A DNA stretch of 33,079 nucleotides, taken from NCBI GenBank assembly GCA_036482575.1, contig JAZGJJ010000114.1, positions 1 to 33,079 on the forward strand, read 5' to 3'. The notes beneath the pieces are model-generated. The model was not told the DNA's origin. It did no database searches and worked only from the letters and a program-made list of their open reading frames with translations. The DNA comes from Thermodesulfobacteriota bacterium. Its GTDB lineage: Bacteria > Desulfobacterota > GWC2-55-46 > JAUVFY01. A program made the translations under genes and the position numbers. Positions 1 through 33,062 of the stretch are shown one piece after another. The stretch's first letter is position 1. The number at the start of each line of letters is the position of its first letter.

Positions 1-554
1 GGGGGCGTGGGGGCCGTGGGGGCCGTGGGGAGGGGGGAGGGGGCAACCGGCCCGTCCTCCCGCTTGTACACCCCCGGCGCGGTCTTCTCCGAGAGCCGCG
101 TCTCTATACTCCTCTCACTTATGGGCACGTCCGCGAGATCTATGAGCGCCTGGTCGCCATCGAGGAGCTTTACTATGTCCTGCTTCCTCCAGGTGTCCTC
201 CCAGTTGCCCACGAGCGCGTTCCAGACCTGCGCTATGGTGACGGCCTGGGCGTCGGTCAGCCCCTCCAGGGCCTTCTTGCCCCCGGCCTTCTCCACGGCT
301 ATGAGCCTCTTCATGTTGTGGACGACCACTATGAAGGGGGGGCCGCATCTGAAACAGTATTTGGTGATATTCTCGGCGCTGTGGCACTGGGTACACTTGG
401 TGTAGGCGAGTTCCTGAGCCTCCTCCAGCGTATACTCCATATGGCCCGCGGCCTTGAGCCAGCCAAGGGCATAGTCCCGGCCGAGGTATGACGACACGGC
501 AAGTACGGCTACAAAAGCAAGCGCTATATACGGTATTGCCCTTTTCACTTTCAT
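1..554 (-). CDS. Partial (3' end cut by window edge) membrane-anchored protein with one CxxCH motif, a second CxxC pair and a Pro/Thr-rich tail
   Basis: Absent from the supplied ORF track because there is no stop inside the window. Hand translation from ATG 554-552 gives MKVKRAIPYIALAFVAVLAVSSYLG...YTKCTQCHSAENITKYCFRCGPP...PVAPSPLPTAPTAPTP, open to nt 1. It has an N-terminal hydrophobic helix. CTQCH fits the haem-c attachment motif, but CxxC-x11-CxxC could also be a Zn ribbon. No clear SD. Confidence 0.5.
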   Translation of the reverse strand, partial: MKVKRAIPYIALAFVAVLAVSSYLGRDYALGWLKAAGHMEYTLEEAQELAYTKCTQCHSAENITKYCFRCGPPFIVVVHNMKRLIAVEKAGGKKALEGLTDAQAVTIAQVWNALVGNWEDTWRKQDIVKLLDGDQALIDLADVPISERSIETRLSEKTAPGVYKREDGPVAPSPLPTAPTAPTP

Positions 555-624: not shown

Positions 625-1566
625 TTAGTAACCCTGTACTTTGGTATCCTCCGGACGCTTGCGGAGTCCACCTTCAACGAAGCCGCCACCCTTAAGACCT
701 CCACCACGGCCCGCTACCATACCGCCTTCCTCTATAAGCTCCTGCGCTTCCATGAACGCCTCGTCCTTGGACGCGTTGAGCGGAGTTACAGCGTTAGCAG
801 CGGGCTTGTAGCTCGACTTCGGGTTAAGGTACTCCTGCAGGGTCTTCGGCGCCTTACGGTCGGCGTTGGCCCTTATCCAGGCTATGACGTTCCATATGTC
901 CTGGTCCTGGAGCAGGTTGCCCCACGCCGGCATGGCCTCCGAGAGGTCGACGGCCGCGCCGCCGCCCTTTATGACCGTAAAGAGATCTACGTTGGTTTTC
1001 TTGTTCATGTACTTCTTGCCGGCGGTCAGGTCCCTCGGGTACGGGTCGAGCATTATCGCGTTAGGCCCGTCTCCCTCAAGCAGCCAGCCGTGGCAAGCTA
1101 TGCAGTACATGTAGTACCACTGTTTGCCCTCGTTGGGGCTTGCGCCCTGCACGAGGGTCTCCTTAAAGGCCGGAGACCAGTTGTTGGTCCACTGGTTGTA
1201 GATGGCCTCGCCCTCAGCAGGCTTCTTTGCCCTGTCCCAGAGCTCGGTCTTACCCGTGGATCTGCCGTAGCCGCTGTCGCCCGACTTAAGCGTGGCCTTG
1301 CCGGCCTTGCCCTTGGACGCCCTCTTGCCGATACCCGTAAGGTAGTCGAAGCCGGTTATGCCGTAAGTGGTGCCGGCAGCGCCGTTCATCATGTCCATGG
1401 CCTCTTTCTCGAACTTTTCCGCGGCCTTTTCCAGCTCCTGCTGCGTACGGGTCGGGCAGACAACCTTCTTTCCGCCCGCCGAACACCTCTTCTCCGCAGC
1501 AAGGACCACGGAAGCCGTGGCAACAAAGCTAAAGGCCATCAGTAACGCCAAAACCTTAGCCCTCAT
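625..1566 (-). CDS. Periplasmic mono-haem c-type cytochrome (class I-like C-terminal domain, about 140-aa N-terminal extension)
   Basis: Signal peptide MRAKVLALLMAFSFVATASVVLA. Contains CIACHG haem motif, GDGPNA...PRDLT, and distal MPAWG. SD GGAGG lies 9 nt before the ATG. Confidence 0.85.
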   Translation of the reverse strand: MRAKVLALLMAFSFVATASVVLAAEKRCSAGGKKVVCPTRTQQELEKAAEKFEKEAMDMMNGAAGTTYGITGFDYLTGIGKRASKGKAGKATLKSGDSGYGRSTGKTELWDRAKKPAEGEAIYNQWTNNWSPAFKETLVQGASPNEGKQWYYMYCIACHGWLLEGDGPNAIMLDPYPRDLTAGKKYMNKKTNVDLFTVIKGGGAAVDLSEAMPAWGNLLQDQDIWNVIAWIRANADRKAPKTLQEYLNPKSSYKPAANAVTPLNASKDEAFMEAQELIEEGGMVAGRGGGLKGGGFVEGGLRKRPEDTKVQGY

Positions 1567-1650: not shown

Positions 1651-2022
1651 TTACGGTCCCTTACACTTGCAAAGTCCTCTCAGGTGATCCTTGAGTTCGG
1701 CTATCTCCTTTTCCGTAAGCGTCTTTCCGAAAGGCGGCATCATCGTGGATTTGCTCGTCGCCTTGCCGCCGCCGGTTATGACGTTTATTATGTCCTCGTC
1801 GGTCAGCTTGCCCATCTCTTTCGGGTCGGTGTGGTTCCTGGGGCTTACGGGCTGGCTCTTGGTGGCGTTCGGACCGTCCCCCTTGCCCTCAAGGCCGTGG
1901 CACTGGGAACAGTAGAACCTGTAGTTCTCTTTTACGTCGGCCAGCGCGGCGGAGTAGCCCGAAATGACCACCGTAAAGGAAAAAACCAGCAAGGCTGCCG
2001 CGTATATAAACTTTTTATCCAT
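1651..2022 (-). CDS. Small periplasmic mono-haem cytochrome c (class I) with C-terminal LCKC motif
   Basis: Signal peptide, CSQCHG, GDGPNA, PRNHT, MMPPFG. Paralogue of 6182-6667; both end in ...LCKC... Confidence 0.9.
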   Translation of the reverse strand: MDKKFIYAAALLVFSFTVVISGYSAALADVKENYRFYCSQCHGLEGKGDGPNATKSQPVSPRNHTDPKEMGKLTDEDIINVITGGGKATSKSTMMPPFGKTLTEKEIAELKDHLRGLCKCKGP

Positions 2023-2082: not shown

Positions 2083-2745
2083 CTACGGAAGGTTGCTCAC
2101 GTATTCGGAGACATTCTTCATGTCCGTATCGTTCAGCACCCCTACGTATACGGGCATGTCCTTGACCGGCTTGAAGACCTTGGGGTTCGTCATGTAGGCG
2201 TATATCCAGTCGGGGTTGAGCCTCTTGCTTGCGCCGACAAGGGTCGGGCCGGTCATCCCGCCGGTTATCTTCTTCCCCTTCTTGCTCAGATGGCAGCCGT
2301 AGCACCCCTGCTTCTTCTTGAAGACCAGCTTGCCCTTGATGTTCTTCTTGGGCTTGATGGCCCCGGCCTTGACGTCCTTGGACTTGAGGCTCATGAGGTA
2401 TTCGGTAACCTCGCCGGCGTCCTTGGCCGAAAGCTTGGGGTGGTCTCCGGGGTTCTTCTTGGTGAGCGAGTAGAAGGCCATGGGCCTTATGGGCTTTGGA
2501 TCCTGGAGCCAGCCCTTCAAGAACTCCTCCTGCAACTTGCTGCCCACGTACCAGAGTTCCGGACCCTTCTTCTTCAGCATGTCCTTTATGGTCTTTTCCT
2601 TGGCCGGGCCCTTGGTCTGGTGGCAGCCACCGCACTTCTTCGCGTCGAATATCGCCTTGCCCCCACCCGCGTTAGCCGTGGCGGCAAAGCCTACAAAGAG
2701 CGCCAGTACAGAGAAAGAGAGTAACCGTGAAAGCTTAAAAGTCAT
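2083..2745 (-). CDS. Periplasmic di-haem c-type cytochrome
   Basis: Two CxxCH motifs (CGGCH, CYGCH). Start moved from 2784 to ATG 2745 (MTFKLSRLL...), which has AAGGAGG 6 nt upstream and yields a normal signal peptide ending ATANA. Confidence 0.9.
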   Translation of the reverse strand: MTFKLSRLLSFSVLALFVGFAATANAGGGKAIFDAKKCGGCHQTKGPAKEKTIKDMLKKKGPELWYVGSKLQEEFLKGWLQDPKPIRPMAFYSLTKKNPGDHPKLSAKDAGEVTEYLMSLKSKDVKAGAIKPKKNIKGKLVFKKKQGCYGCHLSKKGKKITGGMTGPTLVGASKRLNPDWIYAYMTNPKVFKPVKDMPVYVGVLNDTDMKNVSEYVSNLP

Positions 2746-2783
2746 CAAATACCTCCTTGCAATATGCTGTGATTTACCCCGCA

Positions 2784-2812
2784 TGTATAACCCAGCGACG
2801 GGGCTTTGTCAA
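2784..2812 (-). promoter_or_regulatory. Sigma70-like promoter for the cytochrome c genes
   Basis: On the minus strand: TTGACA (2812-2807), 17 nt spacer, TATACA (2789-2784), about 40 nt upstream of ATG 2745. Confidence 0.55.
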
Positions 2813-2897: not shown

Positions 2898-3959
2898 CTA
2901 CTTCCCGCTCAAAAGCGCCTGTTCCGAAGGGGCCAGCTTGATCGAGAGCCCGGCCTTCCCGCCGCCGCCCGAAATGAGCTTTGCGGTATCGACCATCCCG
3001 AGATTATGCTTGGCGACCTCCGTAAACCAGACGAGCCCCGACCCGCCCGCGGCTATGTCCACGGGCTTTCCCGAGGCCTTGGGAAGGTCTATCTCAAGAA
3101 AGCTCTTGCTCTTCGTGTCGAACCTCCCTATCCTCCCCCCCAGCGAATCACAGTACCAGAGCATTCCCTTCCGGTCGATTGCCAACCCTTCGGGGACCCT
3201 TTTCCCGGGCATATCGAACTCCTTAAAACTCCCCTTCGCCCCCTTAACCCCTTTCTCCAGGTCAAAGCGGACTATCTTATGGCTATTCCTTGCCCCGAAC
3301 CACAGGTAGCCGTCTCCGTCGGCCACGAGCTCCCCTGGTATGGCAAAGGGCGGCGAGATGGTAATCTCGGTTATCTTCCCGGTTTCCGGCTCCAGGCGCG
3401 CAATCTTATTCGCCTGCGACTCCACGAACCAGACCTCCCCCGAGTCCAGGGCCACGATCCCTACGGGCTGGCTCTGCTTGGTGGGGATGGAAAATTCCTT
3501 TATTTTAGAGGTCTTGGGGTCGAGCATGCCTATCTTATTCGCCATGAACTCGGTAAACCAGACCCTGCCATGTCCGTCGATTGCTATCTTATAGGCCTGG
3601 GATTTGGGTGTGGGTATCTCGACCTCCTCGAACTCGCCCGTTTTCGGGTCAAAAGAGCCTATCTGGTTCGCGTCCTGCTCGACGAACCAGATCCTGCCGT
3701 CCGGACCTATGGCCAGGTCTATCGGCACGCTCGAGGATGTGGGAATTTCGAACTCTTTGAAGACCGAAATTGAAGGCTGGAAGCGCACGAGCTTGTTGGC
3801 CCTGGCCTCCAGGAACCAGACGTTGCCCGATGGGTCCTCCGCCACGGCAACCGGGAAGGAGCGGGGGCTTGGGGCCGGATGCAACTCCACGCCGGAGCCC
3901 GCGAAGGAAGGGACCGCGAATGTCAGTATGAATAGCGTAATTAGCGGAAGGTTTCTCAT
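2898..3959 (-). CDS. Secreted seven-bladed beta-propeller, Vgb / streptogramin-lyase-like repeat family (COG4257-like)
   Basis: Signal peptide MRNLPLITLFILTFAVPSFA. Seven repeats of the G.(V/I)WF.E...NKIG..DP type (GNVWFLE, GRIWFVE, GRVWFTE, GEVWFVE, GYLWFGA, GMLWYCD, GLVWFTE). Confidence 0.85.
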   Translation of the reverse strand: MRNLPLITLFILTFAVPSFAGSGVELHPAPSPRSFPVAVAEDPSGNVWFLEARANKLVRFQPSISVFKEFEIPTSSSVPIDLAIGPDGRIWFVEQDANQIGSFDPKTGEFEEVEIPTPKSQAYKIAIDGHGRVWFTEFMANKIGMLDPKTSKIKEFSIPTKQSQPVGIVALDSGEVWFVESQANKIARLEPETGKITEITISPPFAIPGELVADGDGYLWFGARNSHKIVRFDLEKGVKGAKGSFKEFDMPGKRVPEGLAIDRKGMLWYCDSLGGRIGRFDTKSKSFLEIDLPKASGKPVDIAAGGSGLVWFTEVAKHNLGMVDTAKLISGGGGKAGLSIKLAPSEQALLSGK

Positions 3960-3965
3960 ATCAGC

Positions 3966-5207
3966 CTACTTCTGTGTCCTGCGGATAATATACCACAAAG
4001 CCGCCGCGAATAGAACGAAAACCACGATTGCGGCCGCCGCCTTGCCCGAGCCTCCGCCCCCTCCGCCCTCGCCGCCCTTAGCCTCCTCCGCAGGGGGAGG
4101 AGTATCCACCATCGCCGGGCCGGTATCCTCTGCCGGGGGCTCCTCCAGGGTCGTCTCTTCGACTGCCGGGACGAGCATCAAGATACTGTTGGCGTCCCTG
4201 TCGGACTCGGTAAGCCAGACCCTGCCGCGAGGGTCTACGGCTATGCCGCTCGGGAGGCTCCTGGGGGTGGGGATATCGTACTCCCTGAAGGTCGCGCTCC
4301 GGGGGTCGAAGCTGCCCACCTTGTTCCCCCTGTTCTCCACAAACCAGATAAGGCCGTCGGCACCCACGGCAAGGGCCACCGGCACAGAGGACACCTTGGG
4401 GATGGTCGCCTCGTTGAACTCCCCGGTGGCCGGGTCTAACATACCGATCTTATTGCCGTTCATCTCGACGAACCACACGCGGTCGTCGCTGTCGACGATA
4501 AGGTCCGCGGGGTTCACAAAGGGGTGCTGGATGAGGTATTCGGTCATCGAGCCGGCGGCCAGGTCGAGCTTTCCGATCTTATTGCCAACGGATTCGGCGA
4601 ACCAGACGACCCCGTTCGAATCCACGCTTATACCGTTAGGCTGGCTGTCCGGGGTGATGACGGCGTACTCCTCGAACTTCCCCTCCTTGAAGCGCCCGAT
4701 CTTATTGGCGTTCCTCTCGGTAAACCATACCGCGCCGTCCGGGGCCACGGCGATCTTATACGGCTCGGCCGCGGGGGTTGGGACCTTGAAGGTCTCCGTC
4801 TTGCCGGAGGCCGGAGATATGCGCCCTATGGAGTTCACCGCGGAGGAGACGAGCGTGAACCAGATCGTCCCGTCCGGGGCCGCGGTTATGTCCGCCGGGC
4901 TCGCGCCAGCGGGCAGGTCGAACTCCGTAAACTCCTCTTTTTCCGGGTCGAAGAGCCCTATCCTGTGCGTACTCTGCTCGGTGAACCAGATACGTCCCTC
5001 GCCGTCCGAGACTATGCCCAGGGGGTGGCTGAAGGGAGTAGGCAGGGGGTAGCCTTCCATTGTCGCACCGGCCACACCACCGTCGGATGCGGACGCACCG
5101 GGGAGGTGGAGGACCAGCACTATGGCCGCCGATATCAAACACGCCCTCATCACCAGGCGCGCCCTCATCGTGAGGTGGAATATGCCGTAAAACGGGGTTC
5201 TTAACAA
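3966..5207 (-). CDS. Vgb-like seven-bladed beta-propeller with Pro/Glu/Gly-rich linker and C-terminal transmembrane anchor
   Basis: Seven WF(T/V/A)E blades, then ...EEPPAEDTGPAMVDTPPPAEEAKGGEGGGGGGSGK plus the hydrophobic helix AAAAIVVFVLFAAALWYII-RRTQK. The start is ambiguous: TTG 5207, ATG 5168 or ATG 5150 (MRACLISAAIVLVLHLPGASA looks like the signal peptide). Confidence 0.85.
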   Translation of the reverse strand: MLRTPFYGIFHLTMRARLVMRACLISAAIVLVLHLPGASASDGGVAGATMEGYPLPTPFSHPLGIVSDGEGRIWFTEQSTHRIGLFDPEKEEFTEFDLPAGASPADITAAPDGTIWFTLVSSAVNSIGRISPASGKTETFKVPTPAAEPYKIAVAPDGAVWFTERNANKIGRFKEGKFEEYAVITPDSQPNGISVDSNGVVWFAESVGNKIGKLDLAAGSMTEYLIQHPFVNPADLIVDSDDRVWFVEMNGNKIGMLDPATGEFNEATIPKVSSVPVALAVGADGLIWFVENRGNKVGSFDPRSATFREYDIPTPRSLPSGIAVDPRGRVWLTESDRDANSILMLVPAVEETTLEEPPAEDTGPAMVDTPPPAEEAKGGEGGGGGGSGKAAAAIVVFVLFAAALWYIIRRTQK

Positions 5208-5214
5208 GAGAATG

Positions 5215-6180
5215 TCACCATGTAAAGGTAGGTTCGTAGTAGTGGCGCAGCTGCCAGTTGGCGTCCTTGTAGGACTGGGCCGCCCCGCCTATGGCGGCCT
5301 GGCCTTCGGTATCGACCTTGCCCGCCCTGAACTTACCGACATCTATCTGCCTCTGCCTCTCGACCCTGTAGTACTCGCCGACGTCCATGGGCGGCAGGTA
5401 CTGTCTCAGCCCGTAAGCCGGGGTGTGGCAGGCGATGCAGCCGTTGCCCTTGGCCGCGTAGCCGCTCGCGTAAATGCCCTGCAAGAGCAGGCAGAAGATC
5501 CCCACCGGAAGAGAGACGGCGAGAGCCCACTTCAAAACCCCCTTCTTGAGCCTGATCGCCTGCGGGACTACGAACACCGCCGCCAGGAGAATGAGCGCGG
5601 CTACGACGGCGATCGTACCGGACGTCTCGCCATCCTCTCCCAGGGTGGAAAAGTCGGCCCTGTAGAGGCTGTAGACGAATATACCGTAGACCAGGACAGA
5701 AAGGGCTATATTAACGCCCTTCCAGACACCCCCCCTGTCCGCGAGCCGTCCCCCTTTCTTGAATATAAAGGGCACGAGCACAAGGAACGTAAGGACCAGG
5801 GCCGGGATGAAAAAAGTGCCGAGAGAGAGCCACTTGACCGAATCGCCCGTAAGGTACCAGAACGGCTGGAGAAGCAGGAAGAAGTACCACTCCGGGGAGG
5901 GCACGTACATGCCCTCGTCCGGTAAGGCCATGTTGAAGTCCACGGGCACGCGGAAGAAGAAGGCCAGCGTCATCGCGATAAGCACGACCCCGCCCGCCAC
6001 AAGGAGGCCCTTTACGAAGTGGCGCGGCCAGTACTTATGGAACTCCTGGGGATACGGCGGCGCGTACCTGGGGTCGTTCACCTTCTCCTCTTCAGGCACC
6101 CCGGTTACCCCCGTTTCTTCAGCCGCCCCGGTTACCCCCTCTTCTTCAGGCACCCCGGTTGCCCCCTCTTCTTCAGCCAC
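5215..6180 (-). CDS. Cytochrome b C-terminal / b6f subunit-IV-like membrane protein fused to a C-terminal mono-haem c domain
   Basis: PEWY Qo-site motif (VPSPEWYFFLLLQPF), about five hydrophobic helices, then CIACH. The acidic N-terminus is encoded by a 27-nt tandem repeat. GTG start 1 nt after the upstream TGA. Confidence 0.88.
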   Translation of the reverse strand: MAEEEGATGVPEEEGVTGAAEETGVTGVPEEEKVNDPRYAPPYPQEFHKYWPRHFVKGLLVAGGVVLIAMTLAFFFRVPVDFNMALPDEGMYVPSPEWYFFLLLQPFWYLTGDSVKWLSLGTFFIPALVLTFLVLVPFIFKKGGRLADRGGVWKGVNIALSVLVYGIFVYSLYRADFSTLGEDGETSGTIAVVAALILLAAVFVVPQAIRLKKGVLKWALAVSLPVGIFCLLLQGIYASGYAAKGNGCIACHTPAYGLRQYLPPMDVGEYYRVERQRQIDVGKFRAGKVDTEGQAAIGGAAQSYKDANWQLRHYYEPTFTW

Positions 6181-6198
6181 CTCAGTTACCCCCCTTGA
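6091..6198. repeat. 27-nt tandem repeat, about 4 copies (period 27, units beginning at 6091, 6118, 6145, 6172)
   Basis: The 'ttcag' landmarks are exactly 27 nt apart. The repeat encodes E-E-(E/T)-G-(V/A)-T-G-(V/A)-(P/A). The last, degenerate copy spans the stop of 6182-6667 and the GTG start of 5215-6180. Confidence 0.85.
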
Positions 6199-6667
6199 AC
6201 TCGCACTTGCACAGATCTTTCCTTATGTATGTTACGAGATTCTGTATCTCGGTATCGCTGAAAGAGGTGCCCCAGTCCGGCATGTTCTCCGAAAGGCCGG
6301 CGGACTTGCCGCCTTTCTTTATGAGGTTGAAGAGGAACTCGTCGGTGCGTTTCCCGATAATGGACTTGTCCGTAAGGTTGCGGGGTTTTACCTCGAAACT
6401 CTCGGCAAGCGGGCCGTCGCCCTTTCCCTCGAAGCCGTGGCAGGGTACGCAGTTTCCCTGGAAGTTGCCGGCCCCGGACTGCATGTCACCCCCCCAGACA
6501 CCCCGGCTTACGGCCTTGGCGTCCTTCTCACTCATATCCACGGGGTTTTCCTCCGCAAGGACGGGGAGGCCGAAAAAGACGCCTGTAAGGACGGTTACGA
6601 CCGCGCACACATGCAAGAACTTTATTTCCTTTATTTCCATTATTTCCTTTATTCCCATTCTTCCCAT
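6182..6667 (-). CDS. Membrane-anchored or periplasmic mono-haem cytochrome c (class I) with C-terminal LCKC motif
   Basis: CVPCHG, GDGPLA, PRNLT, NMPDWG, ...DLCKCEFKGGN. Start set to ATG 6667 (GGGAGG 7 nt upstream) rather than the track's TTG 6673. Confidence 0.85.
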   Translation of the reverse strand: MGRMGIKEIMEIKEIKFLHVCAVVTVLTGVFFGLPVLAEENPVDMSEKDAKAVSRGVWGGDMQSGAGNFQGNCVPCHGFEGKGDGPLAESFEVKPRNLTDKSIIGKRTDEFLFNLIKKGGKSAGLSENMPDWGTSFSDTEIQNLVTYIRKDLCKCEFKGGN

Positions 6668-6692
6668 TCCCAAACCTCCCGGTATCTGCCCC

Positions 6693-7325
6693 TTAAAGCG
6701 GGCCTGATATGCCGTGGCGCTTCACCATCCTGAAGTGGAAGGCCAGCACTACGATAGTTATAAACGGAAGCAGCCACACGTGTATGGCGTAGCTCCTGCC
6801 TACGGTAAACGCCTCGAGTATGGGGCCCTTCAGGGCCTCCCCGATAATGGGCCAGGTCCCTATGTAGTCGGTCCAGATAACGAGCGTCCAGTAGCCCCTC
6901 CAGTCCCAGGGGAGGATGGTACCGGTGATGAGGAAGAGCGTCACGACGAGGAGCATCATCACCCCGGAGAGCCAGTTGAGCTCCCTGGGCTTTCTGAATG
7001 CCTTGTTGTAGAATACCGAGAAGAGGTGTGTCAGGAGAGTGGCCATGAGCAGCGTGGCCACCCAGCGGTGCAGGCTCCTCGTGAACGAACCGAGCGGCAC
7101 CTCGTTGGTCATATAGATTACGCTCTCGAACGCGTTCTCCGGCCTCGCCACGTAGAAGAACATCATGAAGAAGCCGCTCAGGAGCTGCAGGAGTATCAGC
7201 GTAAGGGAGATGCCTCCGAAGCAGTAAAAGAAGTTAACGTGGTTCGGGATGGGAAGGTCCCTCTTCCTCGCCCTCCAACTCTTAAAGCCGGTTCTTTCCT
7301 CAAGCCAGTCCGTCAGTCCCGCCAT
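6693..7325 (-). CDS. petB: Cytochrome b6-type protein (four-helix N-terminal cytochrome b)
   Basis: NFFYCFGGISL retains the Cys that binds haem ci in b6f. Also SLHRWVATLLMATLLTHLF (helix B His pair), KPRELNW, and IHVWLLPF...AFHFRMVKRHGISGPL (helix D His pair with the b6-type C-terminus). Confidence 0.93.
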   Translation of the reverse strand: MAGLTDWLEERTGFKSWRARKRDLPIPNHVNFFYCFGGISLTLILLQLLSGFFMMFFYVARPENAFESVIYMTNEVPLGSFTRSLHRWVATLLMATLLTHLFSVFYNKAFRKPRELNWLSGVMMLLVVTLFLITGTILPWDWRGYWTLVIWTDYIGTWPIIGEALKGPILEAFTVGRSYAIHVWLLPFITIVVLAFHFRMVKRHGISGPL

Positions 7326-7421: not shown

Positions 7422-7856
7422 TTACGAGGCGTACATGGAAGGGGTCTCATCGTACGTCTCGCCCGTGAAGTCTATCTTCCAGCTGTTCGACTCCTCGTCC
7501 ATCTCGAGATTTATGTCGGTCTGCGTTATGAAATAATCGTTGAACATCGAGGCTACCCTGTACTCTATGGTCACGACCGCTACGCCGTCTTCTACGGTGC
7601 TCCCGATTATCTTGACGTCCATGCCCTTGGGGTACTCCTTGACCATGTTCTTGAATATGTCTTCGTGCATCTCATAGTGCTTCTTGCTTATAAGCCTGTA
7701 TGCCTCGCCGAGCGTGGTGGTCCCGCCCTCCTCTACGTAGGCGTAGAACCTGGCAACCACTTCCTCGGGCGTCTCGGTGGGCTCTACGCCCCCCTTGCCG
7801 CAGGATACGACGGAGAGGGCCGCTATGAGCAGTATCGGAAAAAAACTCTTCAGCAA
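7422..7856 (-). CDS. Small lipoprotein, NTF2-like / DUF4878-like
   Basis: Lipobox LSVVS-C after a hydrophobic leader. TTG start with GAGGA SD. The family call is from overall resemblance only. Confidence 0.7.
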   Translation of the reverse strand: MLKSFFPILLIAALSVVSCGKGGVEPTETPEEVVARFYAYVEEGGTTTLGEAYRLISKKHYEMHEDIFKNMVKEYPKGMDVKIIGSTVEDGVAVVTIEYRVASMFNDYFITQTDINLEMDEESNSWKIDFTGETYDETPSMYAS

Positions 7857-7872: not shown

Positions 7873-7920
7873 TAAAAAAAATGTGTCCCGGCCGTTCAAC
7901 GGGAACGACCGGGACACATT
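7873..7920 (-). terminator. Strong rho-independent terminator after the NosZ-like gene
   Basis: Perfect 12-bp stem AATGTGTCCCGG (7880-7891) / CCGGGACACATT (7909-7920). The loop itself can pair (CGTTC/GAACG). A T-run follows on the minus strand (A-run 7874-7881 on plus). Confidence 0.85.
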
Positions 7921-7952: not shown

Positions 7953-9665
7953 TTAGAACCGCTCTACGCGGGCCGGAGCCGTGATCACCCCTGGTTCAAC
8001 CAGTTCTCTATGCTGCTGGGCTTCCTCGTAGTCACCGGTTACCAGGTTGGCCTGGCCCTTGGGACCGTCCACGAAGAACGTAGCCCTCATCTCCAGATGC
8101 AGCGGGCCGCAGAAGTGCTGGCAGAATATCTCGTACTCGCCGGCATAGTCCGCGACGAACTCGCTCATGATCGACATGCCCCTGTTGGCCGTGAGGTTCG
8201 TCCTCAGGCCATACGGACCGTAGATGGTGAAGCCCATCTGTACGTCCGGGTTCTTGGTGATACCCGCGGCCTTGTCGATGTTGGTGACGATTATCCTCAC
8301 CTTGTCGCCCTTGTTGACCCTTATCTGCCTGGGTACGTAGCCGTAGCTGAAGGCCTTGACGTGGACTTCCTTCACGCCGCCCTTCTCGACTATACCGGGC
8401 TTCCCCTTGTCCCTGGGAAGTATGGTGACCTTCGCGCTACTGCGGTGGGACGGATGGACCTCGGTGATGGGCTTCTTTATCAAGTTGACCGCCTGCCCCA
8501 TGTCCCACTGCTTGATCTTGCTGGCGAAGATGACCTTGGCGTTGTGGGGCTCGCCGTCGACAGGTATTATCCTGAGCGTCCTGCCGTAGGTCGGGCTCTT
8601 CTCGTCCACGTCCAGCATCTCGTGGTTCACGGGCCAACGGATGCCCGTGGGGCTCCACAGCCCTGTGGAGAACTTGTTCAGGGCAAAGACCTTGGTGTCG
8701 TCGGCGCTTATGGCGATGTGCCCGATCCTGTAGTGAATCGGGAACTCGTCGGCCACCGCGAGCTTCTCGAGGTCTATCTTGACGACGGCGTCCGCGACGA
8801 AGCAACTCGTGTAGGAATACCTGCCATCGCTCCTGAAGACGTTGTGGAGCGGACCGGCGCCCGCCGGTATGACCTTCTTAACCGCCAGCTTGTCCACGTC
8901 GATTATGGTTACCGTCGCGGAGAGCTTGTCGGCGACCTGTACGTACCTTCCGGTCGGAGAGACGTTCGTGCCGTGGGGGTTCTTACCAACCGGTATTTCC
9001 TTTATGAGCTTGAAGGGGTTGGTGGAGAAGACACCCACTGTGGAGTGGTAGTAGTTGCCTGAGAATACCATCTCCTTCCTGCCGGGCTTGCTGACGTCGA
9101 GGTAGTCCGGGGCGCTGGGCGCCGGGCCCCAGTCGATGATCTGGGCCTTGCCGGTCGCTATCTCGATCTTGGCCATCTTACCGGTATACTCGCCGGTGCC
9201 GTAGAGGAACTTGCCGTCCTGGGACATCGATATGTGATGTACCCCGAACGGGAACGGCAGGCCTATCAACCTCTCGAGCGTTCCGAGCTGCAGGTTGATG
9301 ACGCCGATGGTGTTGGAGCCCTTGTCGTTGACGTACATATACCTGCCGTCGGGCTTGAGGTTCGAACCGCCGGCGTTGGTCGGAGCGCTGAACAGGTTCT
9401 CGTGAAGGTCCACACCCACCGGTATATGACGGTAGGTCCTCATGCTTGGGACACCGATTACAGCCACCGCGCCGTCGAGGCCGCCAGCGTTATAGAGAAG
9501 CTGGTCGTCCTTCAGCGGAGCATCGTTGGGGCTCTTTTCGGTAACGTGCCAGTCCCTCGCATCCTTCTTTGCGGCAAAGGTTGCATCGGGCGCACCCGCG
9601 AAAACCACGAGCGCTATGGCTGCTGACAATAGACTTATCTTAGTTACTCGCACGTTTCTAGTCAC
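7953..9665 (-). CDS. nosZ: Divergent nitrous-oxide-reductase (NosZ)-like protein: Sec signal, beta-propeller, C-terminal CuA cupredoxin domain
   Basis: The C-terminus IVTNIDKAAG...DVQMGFTI...YEIFCQHFCGPLHLEM carries C-x3-C-x3-H-x2-M (nt 8088-8123) and parallels the NosZ TNID...HGF...C.WFC..LH.EM region. Propeller motifs VHHISMSQDGK, GKNPHGTNVSPTGRY...KLSATVTIID, GAGPLHNVF and IHYRIGH resemble NosZ CuZ-ligand blades. No twin-arginine in the leader. GTG 9665 abuts the SD, so GTG 9653 is a plausible alternative start. Confidence 0.75.
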   Translation of the reverse strand: MTRNVRVTKISLLSAAIALVVFAGAPDATFAAKKDARDWHVTEKSPNDAPLKDDQLLYNAGGLDGAVAVIGVPSMRTYRHIPVGVDLHENLFSAPTNAGGSNLKPDGRYMYVNDKGSNTIGVINLQLGTLERLIGLPFPFGVHHISMSQDGKFLYGTGEYTGKMAKIEIATGKAQIIDWGPAPSAPDYLDVSKPGRKEMVFSGNYYHSTVGVFSTNPFKLIKEIPVGKNPHGTNVSPTGRYVQVADKLSATVTIIDVDKLAVKKVIPAGAGPLHNVFRSDGRYSYTSCFVADAVVKIDLEKLAVADEFPIHYRIGHIAISADDTKVFALNKFSTGLWSPTGIRWPVNHEMLDVDEKSPTYGRTLRIIPVDGEPHNAKVIFASKIKQWDMGQAVNLIKKPITEVHPSHRSSAKVTILPRDKGKPGIVEKGGVKEVHVKAFSYGYVPRQIRVNKGDKVRIIVTNIDKAAGITKNPDVQMGFTIYGPYGLRTNLTANRGMSIMSEFVADYAGEYEIFCQHFCGPLHLEMRATFFVDGPKGQANLVTGDYEEAQQHRELVEPGVITAPARVERF

Positions 9666-17000: not shown

Positions 17001-17720
17001 TTAAACAGCAATTGCCCGTGGCATTTCGTCCCATGTTCTACCTTCAAGCTCCCGCCCGTTTTTCTTTTTATTCATGCCGCCCCACTGTTTGAAGAAGAAA
17101 GGGACCCCTGCCTTCATACATTGATTGCGAATGTCGATTGCCCATAACGGGTCCATTGGGCGCGCTCTCGGGCCTGATTCACCCCCAACAATCACCCAAT
17201 CGATTCCCTTTAAATTTAGTCGATATATCGGTCCCAAAAGGGGCTCAATGGAAATAAATTTTATCGCCCCCTTTGTTTTACGGAGGTGGTCTATACGAAA
17301 AGTATAGTCCTGGTTCTCTACGCTAACCCCCGTCCAGATATGCGTGTCCAACGGCAAGCGTGGACTTAGTTCAAGTAGTCGGTCAGACCTCTTGGTAAGC
17401 ACTTGAAAGCGATGCCAATTTGCCTGCCTCATCACATCGAATACCTTAAATATAAATTCGTCCGGGACATCCTCGTGGAAGAGATCGCTCATAGAATTTA
17501 CAAAAACGGTCTGGGGTTTTTTCCACAAAAGAGGCAACTCTAATGCATGCCCATGCACAGTTGTTTTAAAGCCGTTGGTGTAGTTAGGCTGTCCCATAGC
17601 CTTGAGTCGTTTCGCCATTCGTTCGGCGTAACAGTGTTTACAGCCAGGACTAATCTTTGTACACCCCGTCACAGGGTTCCATGTGGATTCAGTCCATTCG
17701 ATAGATGAGTTTGCCGCCAT
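17001..17720 (-). CDS. Phage Gp37/Gp68 family protein (DUF5131), three-Cys motif
   Basis: [65 protein letters not shown] and FFFKQWGG are all hallmark blocks of the family. Confidence 0.9.
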
Positions 17721-18562
17721 TACATCATTCCCCGCCTACGGTATTTACTGAAAATATCTCCAACAATTTTACCACCGGTCGGATTCTGAGTGGCAAAAAA
17801 AAGGTAGTAAACAATACTTCCCTTGGTATTTCTCATGGCTATAGGTTCGGGAACATACCCAAAGCCAGCCACTTTCTTCAAGCGCTCTTGATACGCTTTT
17901 GTAAGCATCCTAATATCCTCTTTTCTTTCTTCTTCCGCACCAAACAGGTCCATTTCTTTAGTATACGCTATTTCCCTCCAAGATTCATCCCCCCAAAAAG
18001 CGTTCATTCTCTCTATGTGAGCCGGGCCTACGGTATCCAGCTTATGCTTGAGCACATTCATATTCATATCCATAACTGGAAAGTTCAACAATATTTCCAT
18101 GCTTTTACATTTCCCTGCGGCCTCAACAACTTTCCAGTTCAGATGTAATCCATATGGGTCGAGCAAGCAAAGACCCCTTTCAAACTTCTCGTAGCGCACC
18201 TTCGGAAAGACTTTCTCTAACAAAACCAAATTGCAATCGTCCACATAGTAGTGAACATCCGCTCTGTCCCCTACCAGATCTTTTAAGACGTTCACCTTAT
18301 TTTTGTTCTTGTCTATAAAGTGATACTCACGGAATGGAGTATCTATGTAAAGAGTTCTGATGGGGCTTCCAGAAATCGACTTTCCCGTGGTTTTTGAGAC
18401 ATGCATGCCGGCACCGGCAAAAGCATCTATGTAAATGTGATAAAAACCCTTTTGGGCCGACATAATCTTTGAGAATGCCGCAGCATACTCCTTGATAATA
18501 TTAAGCTTGATCTCGGACCAGTAACCAATTTCATCAAACTTCAACCCCGACTTCTTAACCAT
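17720..18562 (-). CDS. tcmP: Three-Cys-motif partner protein TcmP (methyltransferase-like Rossmann fold)
   Basis: Sits adjacent to and overlaps DUF5131 by 1 nt (TAATG). Motifs [22 protein letters not shown] and LLDPYG occur in class-I methyltransferase order. Confidence 0.8.
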
Positions 18563-18607
18563 GCCAACCCCTTAGTCTTGTCCGAAGCCATAAATCACCG
18601 CCGCTCT

Positions 18608-18961
18608 TCAGTCCACCTTATACGGGCAGTCGCTCATTGATACGCAAAAGCCGTGGTTCGCCGCGCATATCGTAATACAGACGTCATGCCACTCCGCGTC
18701 CACTTCGAAGACGCCGTCGTCATCCCCAGCCGCGGCCGCTGCCGCCTCCGCCTCTATTATCCGCTCCGCCCCGACATACCCGCCGAGGTTTATCCCCTTC
18801 TCGAACGCTATGGGGTCCTTGCTTGCAAAGCCGCCCGTCTCGGGGTCGTAGTAGCTCGCGCGGTAGTAGTAGAGCCCGGCCTCCCGGTTCCACTCCCTTT
18901 TTATACGGGTATACACCAACATGGGGACGCTTTCCGTGCTTTTGCTTATCACAGTCGACAT
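18608..18961 (-). CDS. Orphan RHS repeat-associated core fragment with a short Cys-rich tail (probable gene remnant)
   Basis: REWNREAGLYYYRASYYDPETGGFASKDPIAFEKGINLGGYV matches the end of RHS/YD cores. There are no YD repeats upstream and no DPxGL. The tail is CITICAANHGFCVSMSDCPYKVD. Confidence 0.7.
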   Translation of the reverse strand: MSTVISKSTESVPMLVYTRIKREWNREAGLYYYRASYYDPETGGFASKDPIAFEKGINLGGYVGAERIIEAEAAAAAAGDDDGVFEVDAEWHDVCITICAANHGFCVSMSDCPYKVD

Positions 18962-19102
18962 AGGGCCGTCTCCTTCCCCGGGAATCTCTAAGTCCCGATT
19001 GAAAGCACCTGTATCGCACCGACCTCCGTAACAGAGCGGCGTAACGGAGCGGCAAGCCTCTGGGAATCATCTCGCGATGTATATTCAAAAGAACACTCCT
19101 TT

Positions 19103-29270: not shown

Positions 29271-30344
29271 CTACCTTATCTTGAGCGTACTTATAGCTAC
29301 GAGCGACAGTATTATCGCTATTATCCAGAACCTTACTATTATCCTCGGCTCGGGCCACCCCTTGAGTTCGAAGTGGTGGTGTATGGGCGCCATGGCAAGC
29401 ACCCTCTTGCCCCTCAGCTTGAAGGAGCCTACCTGGAATATGACCGAGAGCGCCTCCACGACGAATATCCCGCCGACGATTATAAGCAGTATTTCGTGCT
29501 TGCTGGCCACGGCCAGGGCCCCGAGCGCCCCTCCGAGCGAAAGGGCCCCTATATCCCCCATGAAGACCTGCGCGGGATAGGTGTTGAACCAGAGGAAGCC
29601 CAGGCTCGCCCCCACCATGGAGCCGGCCAGCACCGCGAGCTCACCGGACCCGGAGACGTGCATTATCTGTAAGTATTCGGCTATCTTAATGTGACCCGTA
29701 ATGTAGGTCAGGAACAGATAGGTACCTGCCGCTATGGTAACGGGCCCTATGGCCAGGCCGTCGAGCCCGTCGGTAAGGTTCACGGCGTTCGACGCCCCGG
29801 CAATGACCAGCGCCACAAAGGGTATGTACAGGATCCCGAGCTCTATGTGCACCCCTTTGAAGAACGGCACGGCTATGCCTGTATCGAACCCGGACATATA
29901 AAGGAAGAGCCCCGCGAGCAGGGCAACGACCATCTGGGAGGTGAACTTCAGAAGGGGCCTGAGCCCCTTCGGCTCCCCCTTTACCACTTTCTTATAGTCG
30001 TCCACGAAGCCTATCCCGCCCATGCCGACGATTACGAAGAGGAGGAACCAGATTAACGGGTTGGTGAGGTTCGCCCACAAGAGCACCGGCACGATTACCG
30101 CGACAAGGATCATGACACCCCCCATCGTGGGGGTCCCCGCCTTGCCCGCGTGGGTGGGCGGGCCGTCCCCCCTTATCACCTCGCCGACCTGCATGGCCGT
30201 AAGCCTCTTTATAAAGTACGGTCCGATAATGAAACTAAGCACAAGGGCCGTCACGGTCGCGTAGATAGTCCGAAACGTTATGTACTGAAATACGTTGAAG
30301 ATCGCGTGGTACTTGGCCAGTGGGTACAAAAAATGATAGAGCAC
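29271..30344 (-). CDS. mraY: Phospho-N-acetylmuramoyl-pentapeptide transferase
   Basis: (V)[24 protein letters not shown] is the canonical MraY N-terminus. GTG 30344 is preceded by TAAGGAGAGGGG. Also contains [13 protein letters not shown]. Confidence 0.95.
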
Positions 30345-30348
30345 TTTT

Positions 30349-30361
30349 CCCCTCTCCTTAT
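30349..30361. repeat. 13-bp direct repeat, copy 1 (CCCCTCTCCTTAT), at the mraY-proximal edge of the insertion
   Basis: Identical to 31602-31614. It contains the mraY SD and the TAA stop of the 260-aa ORF. Confidence 0.9.
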
Positions 30362-31140
30362 CCCGTCCCTGCGGGAGGATAAAACACACCCAATATCATG
30401 AACTTATCCCTGAACCTTTGCCAATTCCCCACGAAAAAATAGATGTCGTTCTTCTCTGCGCATATTCTATCGAGCCACGTTTCTTTTATTTTCTCCAACA
30501 AAGTGTTTTCATCCTTATATCTCCCTCGCCACTGCCTATACGCTTGACCTATTTCCCAATCGATTATAGGCAAAGTATGGCCTGCACATCCGGGTTCACC
30601 CTGGCAATAAAAAGAATACCTAAAGTCATACGGTATGGGTTCTATTGCCTCCATTCTTTTGTTGTAGAAGCTAAGTTGCGCATAGCAACTCTTCCTCTCT
30701 TGTTGATCTTTTTTCCTGGCCACCTTCCAGTGAAAACCTATATTATGAGGCCTAAACATGCCCAAAGATTTGTCCTTGCTTTTACTCTCCCCATAAACTT
30801 CACACAACGAGGCAGAGACGGTAGGCAAAAGCACCTTCTTTCTCTTCTCCCACCCATTGCTTGTATCGTACACATCGACCACGTTTATCTTGTTGCTAAT
30901 GTCGACCTTAAAACTCTCCGGCCGCGCATCGTCTTTTGCCTTTGAGACTTTTACCTCGATCACACTATACTTCTTGAACCTTTCAGCACTATCCAAGTCT
31001 CTAAAAGGTATGGGGTAAAGTCTTCTCCATTCCCCGCTATCAATATCTACACCGGCAACGCAAACGGTTTCCCCGTACTTCTTGCTCGGATTCGGGTAAG
31101 CCTTAACAGCCACAAGAACTCGTTTGGTTTCCCAAAGCAA
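30358..31140 (-). CDS. Hypothetical 260-aa protein, partner of DUF488; no family recognised
   Basis: Long low-GC ORF co-oriented with DUF488 and 9 nt downstream of it. TTG start after GGGGGAG. Features: [52 protein letters not shown]. Confidence 0.75.
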
Positions 31141-31601
31141 TGACTCCCCCTATAAATGTTTTATTATAAGCCCATTGCCGTCCACTTCCTTAATCTTCTC
31201 GGCCACTATCTTCCTATGGCAATCAGAAGGTTCTTTCTCCATACACATAAAACAGCTAACCCCATGAACTATAGTATTAAGATACAAGTCCCTGACAACG
31301 CTCATCTGTGTCTTCAGATGCTTCCGATACTCTTTGAAAAAATAGTCGTAGTCGTTGTCTTGATAGAGTTTCTGCCGCAATTCCTTTGGGCTTCCTAATT
31401 CTTTCGTGTGCACATACATTATATTGAACCGACCGAGATACTCCTTGAGTTTATTTTTTGAAAACCCGGGTTTTCGGCTGGCCGGAACCTCTCTAACATC
31501 AATAAGAACGTTAACCCCAAATTGTTGGAGTCTTTCAACGAAGTCCTCAATTTTCCTCTTTTCGTATCCTATGGTAAATACCGATATCGGCTCCATGTTA
31601 G
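30362..31601 (-). other. Low-GC two-gene insertion inside the dcw operon (no mobility gene)
   Basis: Bounded by the 13-bp direct repeat. Hand count gives 24/60 G+C for 31141-31200, against 36/60 for 31681-31740 in murF. Confidence 0.75.
31150..31596 (-). CDS. DUF488 family protein
   Basis: VFTIGYEKRKIEDFVERLQQFGVNVLIDVREVPASRKPGFSKNKL, YVHTKELGSP, and CFMCMEKEPSDCHRKIVAEKI are typical DUF488 blocks. Confidence 0.88.
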   Translation of the reverse strand: MEPISVFTIGYEKRKIEDFVERLQQFGVNVLIDVREVPASRKPGFSKNKLKEYLGRFNIMYVHTKELGSPKELRQKLYQDNDYDYFFKEYRKHLKTQMSVVRDLYLNTIVHGVSCFMCMEKEPSDCHRKIVAEKIKEVDGNGLIIKHL

Positions 31602-31614
31602 CCCCTCTCCTTAT
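31602..31614. repeat. 13-bp direct repeat, copy 2 (CCCCTCTCCTTAT), at the murF-proximal edge of the insertion
   Basis: Contains the murF TAA stop and serves as the SD for the DUF488 gene (TAAGGAGAGGGG-CTAAC-ATG). Confidence 0.9.
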
Positions 31615-33062
31615 AAACCGTTTGAACGTGCCGCTTTCCCCAACCGTTCCTCCTTCAAGCCCTCCACCAGCTCTTCCATCCTGACGGCCCTTGAACCCTT
31701 AATGAGGACCGTATCCCCTTTTCCGAGCGAGGAGCGGAGCATCTCTAGCGCCCCCCGGTTGTCATCGAAGCAATGTATGTTTTCTTTCTCCATGCCCCCG
31801 TCCCTCGCCCCCTCGCTTATCGCCGCCGCCCACTCCCCGACGCATAAGAGCACGTCCAGTCCGAGTTCCGCCGAGAGCTGCCCGATCTCGTGGTGCGCCT
31901 CCGAGGAGACCTTCCCGAGTTCCAGCATATCCCCGAGGACCGCCACCTTCAGGCCCGTCCCCACGCTCGAAAGGGTCTTGAGTGCCGCGGTTACGGACTC
32001 GGGGTTGGCGTTGTAGGTATCGTCGAATACAGTGAGCCCGTCGAGATCCAGGACCTCCATCCTGCCGGGCATGGGGAGGTAAGAGGTAAGCCCCTCCCGT
32101 ATCTCATCCACCCTCACCCCGAGCGAGAGGGCGGCCGCGGCCGCGGCCGCCCCGTTATAGACGTTGCACGACCACGGGGAGTTGAGCCTGACCTCGACAT
32201 CTTCGCCGCGTATCTCATATACCGTATCGATTGTATTGGCCACGTTGGCGCCGTTGCGTGAAAAGCACTTTATCCTGACCTCCGCAAAGCCGGCGAGGCC
32301 GAAGGTAATCATCCTGTCGCCCTTAAGTCCGGCACGGTCGGCGATCTTCATCACCCTCGGGTCGTCCGCGTTAACGACCCCCGTCCCCCTGGGGCCGAGC
32401 GAGCGGAAGAGATATCCCTTCTCCTCGGCCACGCCGTCGAGCGAGCCGAGCCCTTCGAGGTGCCCCCTGCCGACATTCGTAACGACCGCCACGTCCGCGC
32501 CGCATATCTCCGCGAGCCTTTCCATCTCGCCCGGCTCGCTTATGCCGAGCTCAACCACCACGACCTCCTGGACGTCGCTCAGGCCGAAAAGCGTCAGCGG
32601 CAAGCCCACGAGGTTATTCATGTTCCCCTCGGTCTTGAGTACGCTCTTCGTCGTCGAGAGTATGGAGGCCAGCATCTCCTTGACGGTGGTCTTGCCGGTG
32701 CTCCCGCTTATCGCCACGACCGGTACGGGACGGCTCCTCCTTACAAAGCCCGCGAGGTCCCCGAGTGCGGTCAGGGTATCCTTGACCGCTATGAGGTTAA
32801 AGGAAGTCGGCAGGTCCTTGACCAACACGTCCCGCATCCCCTCCTCGACCACCGCGGCCGCGACCGCGCCCGAGGCCCCCCTTTTGGCCGCCTCCCCCAC
32901 GAAGCCGTGCCCGTCGAAGTTGGGCCCCTTAAGGGCGAAGAAGAGCTCCCCCCGCCTGACGGTCCTCGTATCGGTGGACACACCCTCGGCCTGGCCGGTG
33001 CCGGCGCCGGCCAGGAGCTTCCCGCCCGTGGCCTCGATGATATCCCTTATAAGCAGCTTCAT
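31611..33062 (-). CDS. murF: UDP-N-acetylmuramoyl-tripeptide--D-alanyl-D-alanine ligase
   Basis: STDTRTVRRGELFFALKGPNFDGHGF, ISGSTGKTT, DDTYNANP. Confidence 0.95.
   Translation of the reverse strand: MKLLIRDIIEATGGKLLAGAGTGQAEGVSTDTRTVRRGELFFALKGPNFDGHGFVGEAAKRGASGAVAAAVVEEGMRDVLVKDLPTSFNLIAVKDTLTALGDLAGFVRRSRPVPVVAISGSTGKTTVKEMLASILSTTKSVLKTEGNMNNLVGLPLTLFGLSDVQEVVVVELGISEPGEMERLAEICGADVAVVTNVGRGHLEGLGSLDGVAEEKGYLFRSLGPRGTGVVNADDPRVMKIADRAGLKGDRMITFGLAGFAEVRIKCFSRNGANVANTIDTVYEIRGEDVEVRLNSPWSCNVYNGAAAAAAALSLGVRVDEIREGLTSYLPMPGRMEVLDLDGLTVFDDTYNANPESVTAALKTLSSVGTGLKVAVLGDMLELGKVSSEAHHEIGQLSAELGLDVLLCVGEWAAAISEGARDGGMEKENIHCFDDNRGALEMLRSSLGKGDTVLIKGSRAVRMEELVEGLKEERLGKAARSNGL

Follow-up and report, generated by a model that had tools for sequence, protein, structure and literature searches.

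A split cytochrome b6 and subunit IV::cytochrome c module with no adjacent Rieske gene accompanies clade III nitrous-oxide reductase genes

A stretch of 33,079 nt from a Thermodesulfobacteriota bacterium (contig JAZGJJ010000114.1 of assembly GCA_036482575.1; the whole stretch analysed is hereafter called the window) encodes a split, b6-type cytochrome b module downstream of a gene for a lactonase-type nitrous-oxide (N2O) reductase (L-NosZ), with no gene for a Rieske iron-sulfur protein beside it. The module belongs to a run of minus-strand genes that extends from position 9665 to the left edge of the window, is spaced at 1-113 nt, and comprises the following features:

7953-9665, minus strand: clade III L-NosZ, a beta-propeller with a CuA cupredoxin domain, 570 aa (NCBIfam, Pfam, PDB)
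7880-7920, minus strand: terminator-like hairpin just 3' of the L-nosZ stop (consensus scan)
7422-7856, minus strand: 144-aa lipoprotein of a conserved family (WKIDFTG motif; weak NTF2-like Pfam matches)
6693-7325, minus strand: cytochrome b6, 210 aa, four transmembrane (TM) helices (PF00033, E 2e-40)
6182-6673, minus strand: periplasmic monohaem class I cytochrome c, 163 aa (PF13442, E 3e-12)
5215-6180, minus strand: divergent subunit IV (PetD/QcrC-like)::haem c protein, 321 aa (hhalign, profile, BLASTP)
3966-5207, minus strand: Vgb-lyase-type beta-propeller with N-terminal signal and C-terminal TM anchor (PF24684, E 4e-92)
2898-3959, minus strand: second Vgb-lyase-type beta-propeller, secreted, position conserved (PF24684, E 6e-62)
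2083-2784, minus strand: dihaem cytochrome c, kept in 'delta'-clade relatives (PF00034 and PF13442)
1651-2022, minus strand: monohaem cytochrome c, position conserved (PF13442)
625-1566, minus strand: 313-aa cytochrome c with a long linker and a class I domain (PF13442)
1-554, minus strand: membrane-anchored CxxCH haem protein whose 3' end lies off the window (no Pfam family)

To place these genes in a comparative frame, we fetched 76 loci encoding relatives of the subunit IV::cytochrome c protein, from one-genome-per-species contigs and others. Gene order was established by probe searches over all family loci, with synteny counts expressed out of 75 loci, all of which are from metagenome-assembled genomes (MAGs).

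The b6 protein aligned over its full length with PetB from b6f complexes of known structure (2zt9_A, E 3e-48). The alignment places its ligands at His86, His100, His182, and His197 and equates Cys35, within FYCFGG, with the cysteine of the CxGG motif, the predicted attachment site of haem ci; the C-terminal GISGPL is also kept. The Pfam match and the PetB alignment agree with a preliminary description of this DNA, which had recognised a clear cytochrome b6 in 6693-7325 from both His pairs, the FYCxGG cysteine, and GISGPL. Within the family, 60 of 61 b6 sequences have the haem ci cysteine, and 65-66 of 66 have the four His residues. The b6 clade is discrete, with scores that fall sharply from ~200 to 166 bits at its edge, and the window b6 scores below the cut-off of the NCBIfam ExtP model NF040969 (177.9 versus 290 bits).

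The 321-aa protein was much harder to place. It had no match in Pfam (E up to 10), NCBIfam, or phmmer searches of the PDB; the PF00032 profile misses it, and a 16-sequence profile yielded only marginal PDB matches, in register with cytochrome b (E 0.16). However, when a family profile of 64 sequences was compared by hhalign with six cytochromes b of full length, the probability was 96.4% (E 1.4e-9), and residues 30-145 paired with the cytochrome b region that runs from helix E through the ef loop to helix F. In a search of 1.84 billion representative proteins the family profile reached proteins that combine PF00032 with a cytochrome c domain, and BLASTP aligned family member P0118 with one such QcrC-like protein (P0236, PF00032 plus Cytochrom_C) from helix E to the CxxCH (E 7e-20). 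These profile, hhalign, and BLASTP results show that the 321-aa protein is a true, though very divergent, subunit IV homologue of the subunit IV::cytochrome c type. The earlier subunit IV call had rested on the PEWY motif alone, and the profile methods uphold it.

The window protein carries PEWYFF and a single C-terminal CxxCH (CIACH). Five long helices (residues 51-75, 112-139, 152-174, 185-210, and 215-245) are present in its AlphaFold2 model, whereas a typical 226-aa family member has three; both models were built from 64-sequence alignments and have mean confidence (pLDDT) values of 58 and 55, respectively, and were used for secondary structure only. The two additional helices correspond to an insert of ~65 residues (residues ~145-213) that is absent from 58 other loci, and the spacing from PEWY to CxxCH is 152 residues in the window as against 86-100 in those loci. 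On this comparison the five predicted TM helices are three ancestral helices plus a two-helix insert unique to the window. Motifs, model helices, and loop charges thus bear out the preliminary account of 5215-6180 (PEWY, about five helices, a C-terminal CIACH, and a periplasmic haem), with the limit that five helices describe the window protein and not the family, which normally has three. The N-terminus of the window protein (residues 1-35) is acidic and repetitive (EEEGATGVPEEEGVTGAAEETGVTGVPEEE).

The C-terminal haem domain is predicted to be periplasmic because the helix count is odd, the loop charges follow the positive-inside rule, and PetD is homologous. Because only ~10 residues separate the last helix from the CxxCH, we infer that haem c sits close to the periplasmic membrane surface. 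Across the family the single CxxCH occurs in 74 of 75 loci. The Qo motif, scored in the 71 loci that include the region, reads PEWY in 60, PDWY in six (Zetaproteobacteria), and PEW[FVTI] in five, such that 66 of 71 have PEWY or PDWY. Other invariant blocks are YPQxFxxFWPxH on the n side, PxPEWY...QPFWY, GCxxCH, RQxLPP, and YKDANWQxRHxYEPTxTW; hhalign places the n-side 'FWPxHxxK' segment opposite the start of cytochrome b helix E. Beyond the CxxCH, the haem domain matches none of the cytochrome c models in Pfam or NCBIfam. Judging from invariance, His313 is the candidate sixth haem ligand.

A scan of all six reading frames of the window detected no Rieske box (C.H.{12,45}C..H), and the large open reading frames carry no Rieske Pfam domain. 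These scans concur with the preliminary description, which had reported no Rieske gene beside the module or elsewhere in the window, and they are equally negative for a missed-frame Rieske gene, which it had named as a finding that would count against its reading. The same holds for the relatives: across the scanned family loci, which span several phyla, no Rieske gene adjoining the module was detected by a strict regular expression, by phmmer with three bona fide Rieske probes, or by a hidden Markov model (HMM) built from those probes. Each of the three methods returned one Rieske gene, a petA beside a full-length petB in locus L020, 8 kb from the module on the other strand. The approach does pick up Rieske genes where they exist, since it detected them adjacent to the out-group cytochromes b that are nearest to the family (35-40% identity). 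At the left edge of the window, the one other contig found with this sequence (L001) extends only 33 nt farther; past the equivalent point, the syntenic locus L006 has ABC transporter genes and no Rieske gene.

The slot upstream of cytochrome b that a Rieske gene usually fills is occupied by the lipoprotein gene. We considered the lipoprotein as a Rieske substitute and rejected it, since, the lipobox aside, an alignment of 55 members has no column of conserved Cys, His, or Met and hence no conserved redox-ligand residues. A second protein is a candidate for the missing third redox subunit, namely the anchored CxxCH protein that is truncated in the window (1-554) and complete, at 193 aa, in L001:11013-11594 (family ~170-195 aa). 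It is encoded in all 43 loci that reach that far, with the CxxCH in all 43. The CxxCH and YCxRCGPPF are invariant, a Met is nearly so, WNxxxGNWE is a further motif, and no Pfam or NCBIfam model covers the family. Its layout, a single N-terminal anchor followed by a periplasmic redox domain, resembles that of Rieske proteins, cytochrome c1, and cytochrome f.

The protein encoded at 7953-9665 scored 695.9 bits against the NCBIfam L-NosZ model NF052460, just below the curated cut-off of 700, over model positions 1-479 of 480. It contains Lactonase, nos_propeller, and Cupredoxin_1 Pfam domains, matches solved NosZ (7aq6, E 2e-29), and retains the CuA motif CxxFCxxLHxEM. We assign it from these matches as a clade III, lactonase-type N2O reductase and effectively a member of the family. 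L-NosZ was described in 2025 (He et al., Nature; as cited in PMC13477213). The relationship to NosZ proposed in the preliminary description is therefore correct, but the protein is an already described type and not something new.

Several observations link the module to L-NosZ. The L-nosZ gene lies within 4.5 kb upstream of the module in 33 of 75 loci and ~5 kb upstream in three more, where the gap is longer because a NosD fusion lengthens it. A Rhodospirillales locus (L089) that was picked by L-NosZ alone has the classic order, and the identities of L-NosZ and b6 to their window copies are correlated (rho 0.71, p 5e-6, n = 32). Synteny, L-nosZ on the same contig, and co-divergence support the earlier statement that the module is tied to the NosZ-like gene. 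However, the module does not follow that gene directly, as had been described, because the lipoprotein gene (7422-7856) and the hairpin (7920-7880) intervene. Seven consecutive T follow the 18-bp stem of this hairpin. A second strong terminator-like hairpin lies at 563-597 on the minus strand, 3' of the 313-aa cytochrome c gene (15-bp stem, 11 GC pairs). The two hairpins suggest that L-nosZ may be transcribed above the level of the accessory genes.

We also considered whether the module is independent of L-NosZ, given Gallionella and Zetaproteobacteria loci that have no L-nosZ within 10 kb, and rejected this because L-nosZ is on the same contig or in a shared gene set. In a Mariprofundaceae MAG, L-nosZ and the 313-aa cytochrome c gene are on the same contig, ~25 kb from the module. 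The Gallionella loci end in genes for an FAD oxidoreductase, a radical SAM/SPASM protein, a Usp/PCP_red protein, and the 313-aa cytochrome c, and this set also follows L-nosZ in L087 and L088. The 313-aa cytochrome c gene directly follows L-nosZ in L086, L087, and L088; because of this position directly 3' of L-nosZ in other arrangements, its product is a likely direct donor to L-NosZ.

The recurring core of the cluster comprises genes for the lipoprotein, b6, an optional cytochrome c or NosD::cytochrome c, subunit IV::cytochrome c, and two propellers, and then for the anchored CxxCH protein, an ABC ATPase, an ABC permease, ABC_transp_aux, and DUF4340. This order is found in MAGs of at least six lineages, almost always with L-nosZ; hosts include Nitrospinota, Nitrospirota, 'Deltaproteobacteria' MAGs, Gallionellaceae, and Zetaproteobacteria. 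The lipoprotein is present in 56 of 75 loci and a propeller is encoded downstream of subunit IV::cytochrome c in 67. The propeller proteins are of the SGL/Vgb-lyase type and have nothing alike in clade I or clade II nos clusters. In the window, a separate mono-haem cytochrome c gene (6182-6673; PF13442, E 3e-12) does lie between the b6 and subunit IV genes, as had been reported, but this is not a general feature of the family, as proteobacterial loci lack the gene and close relatives have a NosD (beta-helix)::cytochrome c fusion in its place (442 aa in L006:7946-9274; also L007, L011, L018, and L042). A comparison of the slots suggests that the 163-aa cytochrome c of the window corresponds to these fusions; no NosD domain is encoded anywhere in the window.

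The architecture of the pair is known from elsewhere. A split b6 and subunit IV::cytochrome c is found in Firmicute QcrBC and in the 'PEWY-cyt c' clade, both of which are Rieske-coupled (PMC4122944). Like Firmicute QcrABC b6c and 'PEWY-cyt c' systems, the module has a split cytochrome b, a CxGG cysteine in b6, and a p-side haem c fused C-terminally to subunit IV; as in QcrABC b6c, subunit IV has three helices and a Qo motif (in the family, with five TM helices in the window), and family member P0118 is homologous to a PF00032 plus PF00034 protein of the QcrC kind up to the CxxCH. The fusion noted in the preliminary description is therefore present but not unusual in itself, given Bacillus QcrC and the 'PEWY-cyt c' clade (PMC4122944). 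Unlike QcrABC, the window module has no Rieske gene in its operon or neighborhood, and its fixed partners are the lipoprotein, the propellers, and the anchored CxxCH protein. Unlike QcrC, its subunit IV is too divergent for PF00032, and its haem domain is unrelated to class I cytochrome c models beyond the CxxCH and has no invariant Met. The preliminary description had named a gene order standard for a described bc or b6f variant of the phylum as a finding that would count against its reading; the split and fused architecture is a known one, but the systems that share it are Rieske-coupled.

The module also resembles the b6f complex of cyanobacteria and chloroplasts in that b6 aligns end to end with PetB, retains the haem ci cysteine and GISGPL, and is paired with a subunit IV whose PEWYFF is identical to that of PetD; the petB-petD pair likewise has no adjacent Rieske gene. 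It differs in that it has no cytochrome f, haem c being fused to subunit IV, in that its hosts are non-phototrophic MAGs, and in that the cluster is tied to an N2O reductase. Cytochromes b in Rieske-free contexts have been reported previously and include the 'PDWF-FeS' branch, which has a fused non-Rieske FeS domain and no Rieske gene in the cluster (PMC4122944), anammox cytochrome b subfamily M and others (PMC5600118), and the Geobacter ExtP/Cbc-type b cytochromes (NCBIfam NF040969). The module shares with these a PetB-like cytochrome b that has c-type cytochromes and no adjacent Rieske gene, and none of them is functionally characterised. They differ from it in having neither a PEWY subunit IV::cytochrome c partner nor an L-NosZ context.

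Among nos systems, clade I is supplied with electrons by bc1 with c550 or pseudoazurin, and clade II by NosGH-NosC1C2 and by Rieske/cytochrome bc (Hein et al., 2017, as cited in PMC13274427); clade II clusters have been drawn with Rieske and cytochrome b genes (PMC13122619). As in the window, NosZ in these systems depends on, or is encoded alongside, c-type cytochromes and a membrane module that oxidises quinol. It differs from clade II in that the cytochrome b modules of the latter carry a Rieske protein and NosGH is an FeS protein pair of the NapGH type, whereas here b6 and subunit IV::cytochrome c occur with no FeS subunit. The neighborhood fits clade III, with cytochrome and NosF/NosY-like transporter genes in 33-36 syntenic loci and not the canonical nosRDFYL. 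'Cytochromes and transporter-related proteins' have been noted near L-nosZ (PMC13477213); an earlier MAG paper overlooked them (PMC11033732). The open literature on clade III, the original 2025 description apart, contains no detail on cytochrome b genes, on the electron supply of L-NosZ, or on energy conservation. Collectively, these comparisons describe a conserved, unannotated, and apparently Rieske-less b6c module that is tied to a new clade of N2O reductases.

How might such a module work? On balance, we lean towards a quinol:cytochrome c oxidoreductase of the b6c type that works independently of a Rieske protein and is dedicated to L-NosZ, a proposal based on gene content and conserved residues. 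In this scheme, b6 would carry haems bL and bH and, via the CxGG cysteine, haem ci, and the subunit IV homologue would contribute the PEWY loop of the p-side quinol site. Quinol would be oxidised at this Qo-like site, and electrons would exit via the fused haem c, the interposed cytochrome c, and further cytochromes c of the cluster, notably the 313-aa protein, which would deliver them to the CuA of the clade III N2O reductase encoded upstream. Because the b and ci haems and the n-side 'FWPxHxxK' segment are retained, the sequences suggest that the transmembrane branch to a Qi-type site is still in use. We infer, moreover, that the proteins form one complex, that electrons flow in the direction given, and that haem c or the anchored CxxCH protein (1-554) stands in for the Rieske protein. 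A farther-reaching proposal, which we regard as doubtful, is that this is a Rieske-free enzyme that retains a functional Qo site along with both b haems and haem ci, in which the rigidly tethered haem c, possibly with the 1-554 protein, replaces the mobile [2Fe-2S] head, and which at the same time would be a dedicated, energy-conserving input to clade III N2O reduction.

A number of observations weigh against a Rieske-independent oxidoreductase that serves L-NosZ. All hosts are MAGs, and absence in cis does not prove Rieske independence, since a Rieske protein could be recruited from elsewhere. The haem domain has no invariant Met, the sole invariant candidate for a sixth ligand being His, and the potential of haem c may be too low for it to replace a Rieske cluster. 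A strong terminator-like hairpin, identified by the consensus scan, separates L-nosZ from the module. The NosD::cytochrome c fusion in the interposed slot and the NosF/NosY-like ABC genes hint at a role in maturation. Finally, locus L074 pairs b6 and subunit IV::cytochrome c with an HAO-family multihaem cytochrome, L061 has the pair on its own, and three Burkholderiales-type loci have subunit IV::cytochrome c with no adjacent b6. In L074 (9314-12532, on an alphaproteobacterial chromosome) the HAO-family protein (PF13447, E 6e-144) directly follows the pair, and L-NosZ, lipoprotein, and propellers are absent. The three Burkholderiales-type loci (L019:9812-10654, L043, and L050) do have propellers. 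Accordingly, of the dedicated quinol:NosZ-like route suggested in the preliminary description, the Rieske-less pair in cis and the conserved link to L-NosZ stand, while Rieske independence and a role as the main route are put forward as proposals.

These points raise three alternatives. The module could be part of an ordinary Rieske/cytochrome b6c complex with conventional Qo chemistry, the Rieske protein being encoded elsewhere and either shared or recruited in trans. Cyanobacteria and chloroplasts, whose petBD is unlinked from petC (petCA), show that such an arrangement is plausible in principle. The features of b6 and of the PEWY site are indistinguishable from those of Rieske-dependent complexes, in at least one host (L020) the contig also carries a canonical petA-petB pair, and the related 'PEWY-cyt c' clade is Rieske-coupled (PMC4122944). 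However, none of the scanned loci, from at least six lineages, has a Rieske gene beside the module even though up to a dozen partners stay together, the nearest out-groups keep theirs adjacent, and the b6 clade is discrete in its scores. Because this absence extends over every scanned locus and across phyla, we consider a Rieske protein supplied in trans quite unlikely. The module could instead be a device for the maturation or activation of L-NosZ, a stand-in for NosR/NosX or NosB that would provide a low flux of electrons for assembly of the copper centres together with NosD::cytochrome c, the NosF/NosY-like ABC transporter, and the propellers, while the bulk of the electrons would come from a housekeeping bc1 and cytochromes c. 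This, too, we judge unlikely. It would account for the NosD::cytochrome c fusion between b6 and subunit IV::cytochrome c in close relatives, for the constant presence of ABC_tran, ABC2_membrane, ABC_transp_aux, and DUF4340 in the cluster, and for the copper chaperones (SCO1 and PCuAC-like) and thioredoxins encoded upstream in L089; the hairpin 3' of L-nosZ suggests different levels of expression, and clade III clusters have no canonical nosR/B/L accessories (PMC13477213). Yet in the window cluster the b6 pair and five cytochrome c genes persist although there is no NosD domain at all, and a b6 complete with three haems, together with a conserved Qo motif, would be elaborate for maintenance. 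That the 313-aa cytochrome c travels with L-nosZ and the b6 pair with the propellers does not separate a maturation role from an electron route.

The third alternative, which we find very improbable, is a reversible or quinone-reducing module that receives electrons from periplasmic oxidations, for example of Fe(II) or hydroxylamine-type substrates, with a secondary link to L-NosZ. It draws on the HAO-family multihaem cytochrome (PF13447) that follows the pair in L074 and on the many hosts from lineages known for iron oxidation (Gallionellaceae and Zetaproteobacteria). However, the module in these MAGs still shares a contig or a gene set with L-nosZ, and HAO-type or stand-alone contexts make up only 2-3 of 75 loci.

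Under a Rieske-independent route to L-NosZ, the module would bear on both N2O reduction and quinol chemistry. L-NosZ is the third clade of the only known N2O-consuming enzyme, and the module is the obvious candidate for its electron input. According to textbooks, Qo chemistry depends on an FeS cluster and its mobile head, a view that is put to the test by a conserved PEWY Qo site lacking a Rieske partner. If truly Rieske-free, the pair would be a minimal, two-subunit system in which to study the requirements of bifurcation, and it would be the first Rieske-free enzyme for Qo-type, possibly bifurcating, quinol oxidation. Three core proteins, subunit IV::cytochrome c, the lipoprotein, and the anchored CxxCH protein, are covered by no family model, and a family profile would mark L-nosZ clusters in metagenomes and separate them from housekeeping bc complexes.

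Several further features of the clusters and of the window were recorded. In place of an immediately upstream L-nosZ, at least 16 loci (Gallionellaceae, Nitrosomonadales, and Zetaproteobacteria) have genes for an FGE-sulfatase-domain protein of ~235 aa and for a second cytochrome b, which is larger. These two genes stand ahead of the lipoprotein-b6 pair, and the second cytochrome b (360-397 aa) has a CxxCH in 21 of 27 sequences (L002:6632-8752, L004, L016, L054, and others); in many loci that begin with L-nosZ, the same large cytochrome b is encoded downstream of the ABC genes. In the split arrangement of L087 and L088, the 313-aa cytochrome c is followed by Usp/PCP_red, radical SAM/SPASM/PCP_red, and FAD amine-oxidase-like proteins, whereas in L086 only the FAD protein follows within the stretch read. 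This conserved accessory set of L086-L088 has no counterpart in the window. In L088, a gene for a cytochrome bd-like oxidase subunit I lies between the cytochrome c genes and L-nosZ.

The rest of the window encodes RNase G, two radical-SAM proteins, and a dcw (mur/fts) cluster. Two islands of low GC content, at 17001-19000 and 30001-32000 (0.46-0.50 versus ~0.60), break the radical-SAM/dcw region; they hold DUF5131 (17001-17720), unannotated open reading frames (17720-18961 and 30358-31140), and DUF488 (31150-31596), and may be inserted or mobile DNA.

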